NCBI GenBank assembly: GCA_963665235.2
Contig: CAXXLX010000001.1
Span: 3,072,001 to 3,136,000, forward strand
DNA: 64,000 nucleotides
From: Candidatus Poribacteria bacterium
Lineage (GTDB): Bacteria > Poribacteria > WGA-4E > WGA-3G
Reading direction: 5' to 3'
Shown in pieces: positions 35,635 to 40,600 of the stretch. A program made the translations under genes and the position numbers. Each line of letters opens with the position of its first letter. Positions within the stretch are counted from its first letter, which is position 1. The notes under the pieces are model-generated. The model did not search any database and had not been told where the DNA came from. It was given only the letters and a program-made list of their open reading frames with translations.

Positions 35635-36714
35635 TCACCTCGCACAACGAAAACCGAAGAGAAAGTTCGCGGTCAGAGGCGTAACGGAGTTACGAGAGGC
35701 AGCCCGCACGTTTCGTACTGCATTGCTCCAAGAGCCACCACGCAAAACGCGGGAACTTTTAACACGTTTATATCTATTTATTAACGACTCGATACTATTC
35801 GCACCCGACAACGGATTCCGAGCAGGCGATGTCGAATAGAAATTGACGTTATACTCGTCCAAGCACCACTCCGAAACATTACCAATCATATCATGCAAAC
35901 CATAACGATTCGCAGTATATTTACCCACTACCGCGGTATCGCCAATATGCCTATCGTAGTTCGCTTTAGTGGAATCTATAGTGTTGCCCCACGGATATTT
36001 TAGACCTGCTAAACCGCCACGCGCAGCTTTCTCCCACTCCGCCTCTGTCGGCAGACGTTTGCCCGCCCACTCCGCGTAAGCCATTGCACCGTACCAACTT
36101 ACCATCGTAACAGGGTGATTCTCATACCCCGTTTTCACACGATATTTACCGGATGCAAACTCAATCCGAGAATGACGCTGACCAATATTGTACCATGGGG
36201 TCCCATCCTCAGCATGTGTGCCTTTAGCATTCAGAAACTCAGCATATTGGGCATTGGTGACCTCGTACTTATCCATGTAAAACGCATCTACATAGACAGA
36301 ATGGACAGGTTTCTCATGAAACACTCCACTGTTGCTTCCCATCTGAAATTTACCCGCGGAGATTCGTACCATGCCTTCAGGTGGTGACGAAACATCGGGT
36401 GCTGCAACAGTGTAGGTAAGTGAAATAGCACCATCATCCCACGTGAGGACAAGCTCCAACGTGCCTAGGGGAAAAGGACCCTTTATTGTCGCATTCATAC
36501 CAGAGATGGATAAGTTACCGTTATTCGCTTTCAGTCCTGTGGGGGTGCCGTTAAAAGTAACGATAATCTTCGTATCTGTTTGGATTGTGCGGCCATCTGC
36601 GGGAATTGCTTTGATAAACGACACCGTTTCTTCTGTCTCATCACAACCACTGAAGGCAATCGCAAGCCAAGTGACAAGCATAGCTATGCCTATGAAACGA
36701 AAATATTTTTTCAT
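35635..36714 (-). CDS. Lipoprotein with Ig-like domain and FGE-sulfatase (SUMF1-like) domain
   Basis: Lipobox FSGC, FQMGS, YEVTNAQY, RLPTEAEWEKAARGG, YGLHDMIGNVSEW, RGGSW, GFRC. Confidence 0.9.
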   Translation of the reverse strand: MKKYFRFIGIAMLVTWLAIAFSGCDETEETVSFIKAIPADGRTIQTDTKIIVTFNGTPTGLKANNGNLSISGMNATIKGPFPLGTLELVLTWDDGAISLTYTVAAPDVSSPPEGMVRISAGKFQMGSNSGVFHEKPVHSVYVDAFYMDKYEVTNAQYAEFLNAKGTHAEDGTPWYNIGQRHSRIEFASGKYRVKTGYENHPVTMVSWYGAMAYAEWAGKRLPTEAEWEKAARGGLAGLKYPWGNTIDSTKANYDRHIGDTAVVGKYTANRYGLHDMIGNVSEWCLDEYNVNFYSTSPARNPLSGANSIESLINRYKRVKSSRVLRGGSWSNAVRNVRAASRNSVTPLTANFLFGFRCAR

Positions 36715-36739
36715 AAAATGCTCACTCCTTACAGTCTAC

Positions 36740-37215
36740 TTGACATACTCTCCCAGCTAAAGCAAGGGAGATTCTTTTAAAAAGTTCCGCTACGCGTTAG
36801 CTATTGGATTGTGGTTTTCAGACGTGTGAACGTCAACGGAGATGCTTGGGCTGTTCCAAGTCTTACTGCCCCTAACTCAAAGGACAAGGTTTCCCTGCCC
36901 TCGTGCTTCGCACCTTCTTTATGCTTGTGAATCAGTGCTTTGGTATCCAATGCAGCATGACCCGTCTTTTGGATACCGAAAGCATTGCACAAAAATGTGG
37001 ATATTGACTGGGTATCGCCAGAACATCAGCACACAACCCTACCATAGGTTGAGGTTCGGAACTTCAACATTGGTGGCGTTGAAGGTGGTAATCCGAACCA
37101 CTGATGATATATATGTTATACCACATTTTAATGCAAAAGTCAAATTAAAAACATAAGCTTATGTTCCTACTACATCCCCCAGCTAAAGCACGGGGGTTTT
37201 GTAGCGGAAGATTTG
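36740..37215 (-). mobile_element. Non-autonomous IS200/IS605 element (PATE-like) with omegaRNA-like body
   Basis: Left end TTAT|CAAATCTTCCGCTAC-AAAA-CCCCCGTGCTTTAGCTGGGGG. Right end GAAT-CTCCCTTGCTTTAGCTGGGAG-AGTATG-TCAA|. No tnpA or tnpB ORF. Internal TTGACT-17-TATAAC promoter. Confidence 0.88.
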
Positions 37216-37222
37216 ATAAATT

Positions 37223-37565
37223 ACTATAGTTTGGACAATATCCGTGAGTCGGATCCCCGCTTTCAAAGCATCTCTGATTTTTCTCTAAGTGCCTCACACA
37301 AATGCAAACAGGAGAAAAATGGTTTCCGCCGATGGGTTTCCAAAGCGCGGTTTCCCCAGCGGGGCGGAATGTTTATAGAATGTTGGAAACCATTGAAAAC
37401 CATTGGAAACCTTTAGCAAGAGGGTTGTGATGCTAAGCATATCTCTGCCGCGCCTCAAAAACCTCTTCCCCTCTTCCACCCTTCCCCTCTTCCACCCTTC
37501 CACCCTTCCACCTATCCGTTTGACAAGAACGTTGGGTTCCCCCCTAAAATTGTCCAAACTATAGT
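37223..37565. mobile_element. MITE with 17-bp perfect TIR and 7-bp TSD
   Basis: ACTATAGTTTGGACAAT ... ATTGTCCAAACTATAGT and TSD ATAAATT (37216-37222, 37566-37572). Contains a REP (ccccagcggggcggaatgtttatag) and 8-mer and 10-mer repeats. Confidence 0.85.
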
Positions 37566-37636
37566 ATAAATTATAACAGATGTCACAAAAAATGCCAGAA
37601 ACAACCAGACACAAACACTATTCCGCTGAGCCGCAT

Positions 37637-40600
37637 TTAGCGCACGATGGAAAGTTTGCCCACGTGTCGCCCGGTTGCTGATTCAAGCACATAGATATAA
37701 ATACCGCTGCTGATGTCTGTAAGATGCCAAACCTTTCTGCACCGATCAATTGCTGTTGTAACAAGCGATGCGACCTGGTTTCCCCCGACATCATAGATTC
37801 TGATATGTGTTCCTTCAGGCAACCCCGAAAATGTCACTTGATTCTCGCGGGCTGGATTTGGATAGACACTTACCGCCGAGAGAGACTGCACAGGAAATTC
37901 CACCGCTAACATGCTTGCATCCGCTGCGATGTCAGCGCCGTAAATATCAGAGAGCTGCAACGTCTCAATTTGATAGCGGCTGTCTGTGTGACGAAGGGCA
38001 CCGGCTGGAAACGTTAGCACAACACGTCGACGCGAGTGCACCAAAATGGCGGATTGCGGGGCATAATTCTCATGCATGTTATCCGCTGTTCCGTTTGCTT
38101 GTCGGTGCAGGCGGTAACGTGCTGGCTGTGCAGCGGAACTGCTCATCGGTTTGTCAAACTGCAACAGAAGCTGATTCGGGGCAGAATAGACAGCCGAAGT
38201 CAACCTCGGCAACGGGGTCGGAACGACAGCAACCGCTGTGGATTGCGCACCGACATGCTCGCCGTTTAGTCCTTGTGATTCAATCACGTACCAATAGGTT
38301 TTGCCCGTTGTCAGTCCTGTATCGACGAAATATGTTTCTGAAATCCCTTTACGAATCGGTTTCAGCATCTCTGAGGCGTGCCGTCGGTGGATAGTATAGG
38401 TAATTGCCCCCAGTGCTGCCTGCCATTGGAGCCTGATTGATGTTTCACTAATCGGTTTTGCGGAAATTCCAGCCGGCGCGAGGGGACCGGTCTGTTGGGC
38501 ATCTTTAAAAACAGCGAGGGCATTTTCGTTGTTAAAAATCAACTCATTGGCACCGTCGTTATCCACATCAGCGACAACTATATTAAAGGTGTTAGTTGCT
38601 GGATGATGCCAGATGGGGTGGAAGTCAACCCCGTCGTATTGCACGAGGTAGAAGTTTGGCGGGGCAGCGATACACAGCTCATTCTGTCCATCGTTATTAG
38701 CATCTGCAATAGTTAGCGCGCCCCCTTGTAGGTCACGAATTCGTTGCTGCCATACTGCGCGATAGCTGTTGTTGCCGTCAGTCGTAAAAATTGTGAAAAG
38801 CCAATGCTGACGAGGAATATCAACTTCGGTAGTCCACACCTTCGCACCGACAGCAAACTCCGGTGTACCATCGCCAGTCAGGTCGCCTGCAGCCAAAAGG
38901 ACGGGGATGCCTTCAGGGAGCATGCCAACCCAGGTATGTCTGTATCGGTTATCTCCGGTGTTTTCGTAGATAAAGATTTCTGCGTCGCTATCACCTGTTA
39001 AAATTTCCATCTGTCCATCCGCGTCAAAATCATCTATAGCGAATCGGGTCGCTTCAATCTTATTTTTACCCTGCGTTGGATTTTCAAGGACAGTTGTGTT
39101 GCGATAGCTATTATCCCGCTCTGCTTCATAAACCCCGATAGCATCAATTCCATTATAACGATAACGAGAGAAAATTTCTGGTTTTCCATCTGCATCGCCA
39201 TCTAAAATTGTGCCGCCCCAGATTTCTGTCGTTTTCCAGATACGTTCTGTCGGGAATTCACCGGGGGCGGGTTGTTCAAGCAAAAATGTGCCTTCTGAGG
39301 AATTGCCCAAGATTTCCAGAAGGCCATCGCCATCGGTATCAGCAGTTCCCCAGAGCCGTGCTAATGGTAACCTTTCCTGAGGGGAAAAAACGTGTTTGTC
39401 CATTAGTTTGTATGTGCTATCATCATACGCCTCAAAAATTTGTAAGACTGTTTCCCCATCGGCATCCGTTCCCATGTCGATGAGCTCTAATTTTCCGTTT
39501 CCGTTCATATCTTCAGCGGCGGCAATCGGGTGCAAATCGTGTGCCACCGAGGCCACTTGCGAAAGATGAAACGGTTGAATGTACACATCTTGTACTGTAA
39601 TTGGATACAACGCGCCGTTGTTGTCATCAATCTGTTGCAAACCTGTTCGATTTTGAACTGTCAGACGGTACAGGTATTCACCGGGGGGCAAACCTACCTC
39701 GGACAGATAGGCGATATGTTGCCGATGCACCGATTCTGTAGTAGCAACCCGTAAGCGGTGAGAGTGGGAGATAGCTTCTACTGCTGGAAAAATCTCAATT
39801 TCTCCGCGTGCTGACACATCTGTTTGCCAGATAACAACCGAATCGACACGGTTTCCGGAGAACCATAGACTTGCCTCATGCTTGGAAATACGTGGTGGTG
39901 GGTGTGCTATTGGGACAACCACTTTGTCTCGGATAGTTTTTCCATCTCCATCTGCAACGCTGAGCCGTAGCGTATATATGCCTTCTGCTAATGCTGTAGC
40001 ATCCCACTCATGCAAAACAGCCTCAAACTTGGGGACCGTTTGCGGAATACCGATAGGATACCAGAGTGCGGGGGTTTCACTCATGCCGAATTCCAGCCAA
40101 TATTTAACGAATCTATTCCCGCCGGCACTTCCGAAAACCGCTATTTTCCCATCCTGCTGAATTTGAGGCACGGCAATATAAGCGGTAAGTGCTATCTGTT
40201 CAGTCAGCGCAGCATAAGCATCAAGGAGCCCGGCTCCAACAAGCGGTGTTAGGAACAGCTGCTGTGCAGTATTTATCAACGCCTGTCGTACAGTTGTGTT
40301 AGCGCACGTTGGATTTGCAGAAATCAGCAGGGCAGCGACACCGGACACGTGGGCTGCTGCCATTGAGGTCCCAGGGCGGGACTTGTACTCTTTAAGGTCT
40401 ATACTAAGAATACCTGCACCGGGTGCCGCGATATCGATGCTTGCGCCGAAATTAGAGCCGCCCCCTAATTGCCTATCCGCTTCGAGTGAGGCAACAGAAA
40501 TGACTGTTTTAAGTGCAGCTGGATAGTATGACCCCGCTTCCGCTGAATTCCCCGCTGCAGCGACCAGTACACACCCACGATGGTAGGCATACTCTACAGC

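Follow-up and report, generated by a model that had tools for sequence, protein, structure and literature searches.

A putative pseudoknotted leader RNA, supported by covariation, on protein-less IS200/IS605 elements of Poribacteria

What kind of RNA would a transposable element without a gene specify, and what would be the use of a structured domain placed in front of its guide scaffold? These questions were raised by an element of the IS200/IS605 group lacking a transposase or nuclease open reading frame (ORF), and hence called ORF-less here, in the genome of a Candidatus Poribacteria bacterium (assembly GCA_963665235.2, designated G000 in the locus names below). The element was found in a stretch of 64,000 nt (contig CAXXLX010000001.1, positions 3,072,001 to 3,136,000), and this whole stretch is referred to as the window. 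An initial annotation made from the sequence alone had proposed that the element carries an intact targeting code, its own promoter and an orphan omegaRNA-like transcript with an extra 5' structured domain. The earlier observation of the element was confirmed almost to base level, and each of the predictions amenable to testing held. The analysis described here further indicates that the 5' domain, hereafter the leader, is a new and well-supported RNA module with no assigned function, situated on a known kind of element.

The leader lies immediately at the predicted start of transcription. A DNA search recovered the interior of the element in only 2 of 100 related genomes, at 73-74% identity, and compensatory changes were seen in every stem. 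When the complete 178-nt domain was modelled (covariance model R1), matches appeared in 23 of the 112 genomes of the family, and the alignment of 31 R1 matches located the conserved core in the first ~100 nt. Two R1 matches were dropped, as the one at L109:1563-1660 was tnpB coding sequence and the other, L110, was a false match without the structure. In a MAFFT alignment of 29 core sequences that was not fitted to any structure, helix P2 was 94.6% paired and the pseudoknot 95.9% paired, with five pairs each changed on both sides. The covariation score of this alignment was 0.283 when compared to 0.135 in shuffles, none of 500 shuffles scoring as high, and the remaining helices were hurt by misalignment.

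A second covariance model (R2) covered the leader core with 101 positions and did not contain the pseudoknot. The alignment fitted to this model held 47 matches from 47 of 62 sources; the 15 left out were repeats of included places, copies in this genome identical to that of the window, one copy identical to that of another genome, and the false L110. Of the cells in this alignment, 89.9% paired when compared with 67.6% in shuffles, and 28 of the 34 pairs changed on both sides, while a shift of the partners by 1-3 columns lowered pairing to 37-49%. The pseudoknot was 97.1% paired with covariation at five of its seven pairs, despite its absence from the model. Its two strands occurred as 20 sequence variants, 19 of which were complementary, and the P3 stem occurred as 34 variants. 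A covariance check of the 5' domain had been suggested in the initial annotation, and the covariation it returned was strong. These results point unambiguously to a real fold pattern, despite the kinship of the sequences.

No Rfam family fitted the leader, the middle domain or the scaffold of the element. With Rfam 15, positions 36000-38000 of the window gave only a chance miRNA match outside the element at E values up to 10, and ten diverged loci gave no match on the leader at E up to 1. Neither a tRNA nor a tmRNA was found by ARAGORN. A motif named 'Poribacteria-1' was reportedly described by Weinberg et al. in 2017; the name does not occur in the main text of that work and, if the motif is contained in Rfam 15, it gave no match.

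The distribution of the leader was examined with R2, which found matches in 74 of 151 genomes sampled from the Poribacteria phylum. By family, these were 69 of 99 genomes in the family of the present genome, 1 of 10 and 3 of 26 in two sister families, and 0 of 15 in six other families. The present genome had 20 such places, which were the nine copies of the element and eleven elements of other end types, and the relatives G037 and G051 had at least 26 scored leader matches each. All loci inspected were ORF-less elements composed of a left hairpin, promoter, leader, variable middle, omega-like 3' part and right hairpin, and their ends were of four or more kinds. A TnpB-like ORF behind the leader was detected in none of the 47 loci of the fitted alignment. 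The 19 co-oriented ORFs of at least 150 aa that started within 900 nt were host genes, none of them matching TnpB in phmmer at E up to 10. Scans for the exact pattern yielded two real stretches among ten in genome contigs, both in records titled as Poribacteria, the other eight being chance hits, and none among seven in metagenome contigs. One complete ORF-less element was observed on a 14.9-kb contig filed as viral (L148, IMGVR_UViG_3300006527_000034), at locus positions ~330-790 on the minus strand, with TTAT, left hairpin, promoter, leader (R2 70.9 bits, E 3.9e-18), omega-like part and right end.

The idea that the leader is exclusive to ORF-less elements, as the 0 of 47 loci had it, was rejected when a topology search located the leader ahead of intact tnpB genes. 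This topology, in a sequence unrelated to the other leaders, was first seen in the 5' untranslated region (UTR) of the resident tnpB for a 368-aa protein, and a descriptor was composed of P2 (8 bp), J2/3, the P3 hairpin, the P2 return, P4 (4-5 bp) and a P4 loop pairing with J2/3 over at least 6 bp. In its strict form, the descriptor was matched by 4 of the 35 resident tnpB upstream regions, belonging to two tnpB families, at 79-86 nt before the ATG. When relaxed in P2 (7 of 8), it was matched upstream of 22 of 28 homologues of the 368-aa TnpB, which came from 28 genomes and form one protein family. Neither form matched any of 400 random regions. The fold lay 80-88 nt upstream of tnpB in 21 of the 22 homologues and 120 nt upstream in one, with 19 distinct pseudoknot sequences, and several of the six misses showed the fold with one flaw. 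The junctions of the leader were 1-4 nt long and differed between the ORF-less-type and the tnpB-type leaders. The leader so appears to be an old feature of the tnpB transcripts in this group, of which the ORF-less elements carry a sequence clade of their own. The 5' domain had been taken as a peculiar extra of this element, but it is a conserved leader of many ORF-less elements and occurs in diverged form before intact tnpB.

The anatomy of the element is given in Table 1. TTAT, both guide tetranucleotides and the terminal TCAA stood as the initial annotation had placed them, and the five stems named there and a GTAAGAC segment were all present in the sequence. Both ends contained subterminal imperfect palindromes with the common loop GCTTTAGCT, and terminal inverted repeats were absent. 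The left cleavage site was 19 nt from the hairpin foot and the foot of the right hairpin 10 nt from its cleavage site, which agreed with the proposed IS608 geometry, as these distances equal those for IS608 in the consulted part of PMC3201880. The longest ORFs within the element encoded 63 and 104 aa, and there was no transposase or nuclease gene inside. A tblastn search of the element with 35 resident TnpBs found no significant likeness (best E 0.014 in a 476-nt database). The RNA of the element folded better than its shuffles (z = -3.10), none of 100 shuffles being as good.

Table 1. Features of the ORF-less element and its flanks in window coordinates, all read on the minus strand.
Feature	Position	Strand	Remark
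ORF-less IS200/IS605 element	37215..36740	minus	476 nt
Target / transposon-adjacent motif TTAT	37216..37219	minus	retained 5' of left end
Left end	37176..37215	minus	guide AAAA and imperfect palindrome
Guide AAAA	37197-37200	minus	element +16..+19; immediately 5' of left hairpin
Left hairpin CCCCC-GTGCTTTAGCT-GGGGG	37176-37196	minus	imperfect palindrome, 11-nt loop
Sigma-70-like promoter TTGACT-17-TATAAC	37115..37143	minus	predicted; TG upstream
-35 box TTGACT	37138-37143	minus	
-10 box TATAAC	37115-37120	minus	
Pseudoknotted leader RNA (putative), ~100 nt	37008..37106	minus	three-way junction with loop-to-internal-loop pseudoknot
Leader P1	37101-37106 with 37024-37029	minus	
Leader P2	37092-37099 with 37053-37060	minus	
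Leader P3	37078-37084 with 37062-37068	minus	
Leader P4	37047-37051 with 37034-37038	minus	
Leader pseudoknot	37085-37091 with 37039-37045	minus	J2/3 with L4
Leader P5 hairpin	37008-37021	minus	
Middle domain, P6 and P7	36935..36990	minus	stems covary in three genera
P7 loop AAGACGGGTCATGCTGCA	36951-36968	minus	resembles RuvC-I-coding stretch of tnpB
OmegaRNA-like scaffold	36740..36901	minus	homology to tnpB 3' ends; includes right hairpin, GAAT and 10-nt tail
Guide GAAT	36771-36774	minus	element -35..-32; immediately 5' of right hairpin
Right hairpin CTCCC-11-GGGAG	36750-36770	minus	
10-nt tail AGTATGTCAA	36740-36749	minus	ends with TCAA
3' flank GTAGACTGTAAGGAGTGAGC	36720..36739	minus	would-be guide of ~16-20 nt; role presumed from the omegaRNA layout in passages of PMC10691335 and PMC10055086

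Nine full-length copies of the element were present in the genome, with 88-100% identity. In an alignment including the flanks, all nine followed TTAT and ended with GTATGTCAA, and their 3' flanks were unrelated and had no TTAT repeat, so that no target duplication was seen. The nine copies occupied eight flank contexts, as those at C1:1018312 and C3:14408 had common flanks. Further copies TTAT-preceded and with differing 3' flanks had been predicted in advance, and the prediction held for all nine. The genome additionally contained a chimeric copy, a decayed one and a fragment. An empty site was also detected, as one contig of the metagenome run X3 links 36739 to 37216 and omits exactly the 476 nt. 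This single contig is suggestive of the expected empty site; the joint was found in one of four DNA-contig runs, with a shorter side of 30 letters at 90% likeness, a setting at which false joints are possible.

Repeats were observed within and beside these elements. A 24-nt insert, GAGGATGTCCTCGGTGGGACCTCG, was present in the omega region of three to four of the nine copies (C1:1018312, C1:3342011 and C1:546347, with a shorter variant in C3:14408), and a related unit, GATGTCCTCGGTGGGACC, had grown into a long tandem array in another element (G000:C1:892517 onward), producing false ORFs. Just upstream of the element in the window, an 8-nt tandem repeat of CCCTTCCA-like units gave five overlapping 24-nt copies at 37462-37517, and a similar CCACCCTTCC run was seen upstream of a tnpB element at about 330,960 of G000:C1. 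The contig depth over 37240-37560 was 10- to 100-fold above the flanks in four metagenome runs, with several skip joints, and this interval is therefore another dispersed repeat.

The genome was rich in IS200/IS605 sequences: the TnpB TNB domain was matched 44 times and the Y1 transposase 13 times, and 20 ORF-less elements bore the leader. Ten tnpB-only elements, 1409-1434 nt in length, had the same left end, promoter and right end as the element, and all ten followed TTAT. Their first 108 nt, comprising the left end and promoter, were 82% identical to those of the element, and their right hairpin and tail were the same. Nine of the ten contained an intact ORF of 400-401 aa with OrfB_IS605 and Cas12f1-like TNB domains. 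The 400-aa TnpB retained, as judged by eye, all three RuvC motifs as well as the zinc-finger cysteines. One resident Y1 TnpA is encoded at G000:C1:3153209-3153562. Two of the 13 Y1 matches lay in elements with both tnpA and tnpB, which agreed with the ORF-less element in their first 47 nt, followed TTAT as it does and had an identical left hairpin. Their right hairpin was alike, with a different tail (TCTATCAC... versus AGTATGTCAA), and owing to this difference the transposase acting on the right end may be any of the 13 Y1 matches. The search for cognate genes advised by the initial annotation thus returned tnpB partners and candidate tnpA partners, and the omegaRNA it had termed 'orphan' is not one, as matching TnpB genes are resident in the genome.

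The last 144 nt of the element (positions 333-476) aligned with the 3' end of each of the ten tnpB-only elements, with an identity of 68-69% and E values of 1e-10 to 4e-14. The matched region was the last ~145 nt of these elements, composed of the tnpB 3' end and the right end, and the alignments spanned 144-161 nt. In an alignment of the element, one variant from the same genome, three relatives from other genomes and one tnpB element, 10 of the 30 predicted scaffold pairs were retained through changes on both sides. This comparison showed the putative scaffold to be a diverged homologue of the omegaRNA region of the tnpB-only elements. The relationship extended to other ORF-less elements, as four resident tnpB families supplied a matching 3' end for 10 of 12 representatives in this genome. 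Elements ending in CTATGAC matched that of the 383-aa tnpB at 92-99%, the GCTATCAC-ended elements that of the 368-aa tnpB at 74-77%, and one GATGTCA-ended element that of the 402-aa tnpB at 70%; the remaining two had no partner among the resident tnpB 3' ends at E 1e-6. The omega region of one tnpB-only element (L012:179-291) gave a weak match to the Rfam family HgcC (24.7 bits, E 0.07, gathering score 50). Archaeal HgcC RNAs overlap the 3' ends of IS605 orfB genes.

The domain between leader and scaffold had a loop in P7 that was near-invariant across three genera, while the stems around it covaried. By eye, this loop agreed with the RuvC-I stretch of tnpB in 16 of 18 bases for a resident tnpB and in 18 of 18 for tnpB in another genome. 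The likeness was read by eye only; the tblastn search mentioned above gave no significant tnpB relic at the protein level in the element. The RuvC-I stretch of a resident tnpB was seen, also by eye, to be flanked by arms able to pair at 7 of 8 positions, which is suggestive of a hairpin within the tnpB RNA that may have been retained by the gene-less elements.

The promoter was found as it had been described, with one qualification. Both boxes and their spacing were present, but the -10 box carries C at its invariant last position, where the family consensus is TATAAT. The other eight of the nine copies have TATAAT and only the copy in the window has TATAAC, for which a promoter scan requiring T at the last -10 position did not list it; at 37115, contigs from each of the four metagenome runs had T. 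The promoter of this copy is thus probably weaker than that of the family. The promoter region was common to the element and the tnpB-only elements, and in 32 of 47 loci the promoter pattern preceded the leader-model match at a constant spacing of 33-35 nt, which places the predicted transcription start 1-3 nt before P1. Downstream, an ORF for a lipoprotein with an FGE-sulfatase domain (Pfam E 3.3e-66) begins 25 bp past the right end, the same distance as noted initially, and the flank at 36720..36739 overlaps its ribosome-binding site.

On this basis, the element is quite probably a PATE-type derivative of the IS200/IS605 family that is neither autonomous nor protein-coding, and it would work as follows. 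A Y1 TnpA encoded elsewhere in the genome would excise the top strand and insert it 3' of TTAT. The left-end promoter would yield an RNA of ~370 nt consisting of the leader, the middle domain, the omega scaffold and then the flank as guide. A TnpB from the tnpB-only elements would load this RNA and cut the empty site composed of TTAT and the flank, and recombination would restore the element, as in the homing model of Meers et al. These steps of transposition, guide read-out and TnpB loading follow the established IS608 and TnpB models, and we infer them from the anatomy of the element. The leader would have been an ancestral part of tnpB mRNAs in this transposon group that survived the loss of the gene. 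It would act at the RNA level, independently of tnpB translation, because the fold is kept via compensatory changes in gene-less lineages.

As for what the leader does, a compact 5'-terminal fold protecting or maturing the transcript fits best because of the extreme 5' position, the compactness and the short junctions with few invariant unpaired bases, and this role is proposed tentatively. Slightly less credible is that the leader forms a functional module of the TnpB guide-RNA transcripts, serving as a 5' handle for nuclease resistance or TnpB capture. If so, the leader would be retained by protein-less elements belonging to several TnpB lineages because it lets their guides compete for the nucleases made by others, and the active RNA would comprise three domains over ~300-420 nt instead of only the usual scaffold. 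Aptamers are commonly laid out as a three-way junction with a loop-to-internal-loop pseudoknot, and in front of tnpB the fold stops a few bases short of the start codon, with the 3' strand of P1 abutting the ATG. Both features would suit a leader that regulates tnpB translation in cis, be it as a riboswitch, a thermometer or an autoregulatory site, and that is merely carried along by the ORF-less elements. We regard this as unlikely, because the fold persists in many ORF-less lineages, in which there is no gene to be translated, because tnpB-type and ORF-less-type leaders have different unpaired bases, which argues against a shared pocket, and because no Rfam family matched. The position at the very 5' end, the hairpin and A-rich single strand after the leader, and an acceptor-like P1 plus two arms with touching loops might instead indicate a processing signal. 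A self-cleaving ribozyme, or else a tRNA-like handle recognized by RNase P or RNase Z, would in this case release the guide RNA at its 5' end. However, neither the ribozyme and tRNA-like families of Rfam nor ARAGORN gave any match, and the junctions are very short with few invariant bases, so that such a signal appears improbable.

Two further explanations deny the RNA a present role or shift it to the host. The RNA features could be inert relics of a deleted tnpB element, left in parasitic DNA moved by TnpA, and the apparent piece of tnpB coding sequence in the middle domain, the mutated -10 box of this copy and the limited identity of the scaffold to the resident tnpB 3' ends would all accord with decay. 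Decay is nevertheless difficult to reconcile with the R2 leaders, which form a clade confined to ORF-less elements (0 of 47 with tnpB) and keep their helices and pseudoknot through many compensatory changes, or with the scaffold pairs retained through double changes and the promoter in register in 32 of 47 loci; we hold this explanation to be improbable as well. The element might also matter to the host as a mobile promoter driving the FGE-sulfatase lipoprotein gene, which has the same orientation at a distance of 25 bp. No terminator-like site was predicted across 36300-37700, and several relatives likewise lie just upstream of co-oriented host genes. Read-out of the flank, however, is already needed for making a guide, the -10 box of this copy is weakened and the family occupies many unrelated contexts, which together leave such a host role very improbable.

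Several points weigh against the reading of the element as a mobile, guide-encoding derivative with a functional leader. The right-end tail of the tnpA+tnpB elements differs from that of the element, and cross-loading of TnpB is not assured because the scaffolds of the element and of the resident 400-aa TnpB share only 68-69% identity. The joint for the empty site came from one contig in one of four runs, at settings prone to false joints, and the -10 box of this copy ends in C. The sequences compared for covariation were kin and multi-copy families, so that the shuffle statistics overstate their independence. The descriptor for the tnpB leaders was written after the first such case had been seen, and in the ten matching tnpB-only elements, whose 5' UTR differs, the leader was found neither by R2 nor by the strict descriptor. 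The leader also has few conserved unpaired bases, which indicate no particular biochemical role.

The leader is predicted to mark the 5' end of tnpB mRNAs and of stand-alone guide-RNA transcripts across a bacterial lineage. The leader offers a mutable handle for studying how omegaRNAs are made, stabilized and loaded without co-expression of TnpB. If the leader indeed raises RNA stability or loading, it could be of use in TnpB-based editing tools.

A literature search with Poribacteria and TnpB, PATE and TnpB, and TnpB, UTR and pseudoknot, not extending to the supplementary motif list of PMC5737381, found no description of such a leader. The comparison with known systems was made on the parts of the cited sources that were consulted. 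The element resembles IS608 of Helicobacter pylori (PMC3201880) in its insertion 3' of a tetranucleotide, in the 4-nt guide directly 5' of each hairpin, and in cleavage 19 nt 5' of the left hairpin foot and, at TCAA, 10 nt 3' of the right one. It differs from IS608 in having TTAT/AAAA instead of TTAC/AAAG, in lacking tnpA and tnpB inside and in its hairpin sequences. With the tnpB-only (IS1341-type) elements, e.g., G000:C1:170109-171517, it shares the ends, TTAT and a homologous omega region, whereas those elements carry the 400-aa TnpB, encoded at G000:C1:170126-171328 in this example, and another 5' UTR. IStrons (bioRxiv 10.1101/2023.11.20.567912) likewise have a large structured RNA by the left end of a guide-encoding IS605-family element. 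That RNA is a group I intron, whereas the present element showed no group I intron or Rfam match and no sign of splicing.

The closest kind is formed by the PATEs and the standalone omegaRNA elements, including those of Geobacillus stearothermophilus (Meers et al., PMC10055086; PMC10691335). PATEs "often encode omegaRNAs" requiring the action of TnpB in trans (PMC10055086), and stand-alone omegaRNAs function in trans with compatible effectors (PMC10691335). A protein-less IS200/IS605 element with a guide RNA is thus of a kind already in print, of which the present one is a solid but ordinary example. As in those elements, there is no protein gene, both ends are retained, and an omegaRNA scaffold at the right end would be followed by a guide from the flank, with TnpB and TnpA supplied in trans by related elements. 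The text passages of PMC10055086 and PMC10691335, figures and supplements aside, do not mention a leader of this sort. The difference here is a predicted transcript of ~370 nt in which a pseudoknotted leader of ~100 nt and a middle domain would lie upstream of the scaffold.

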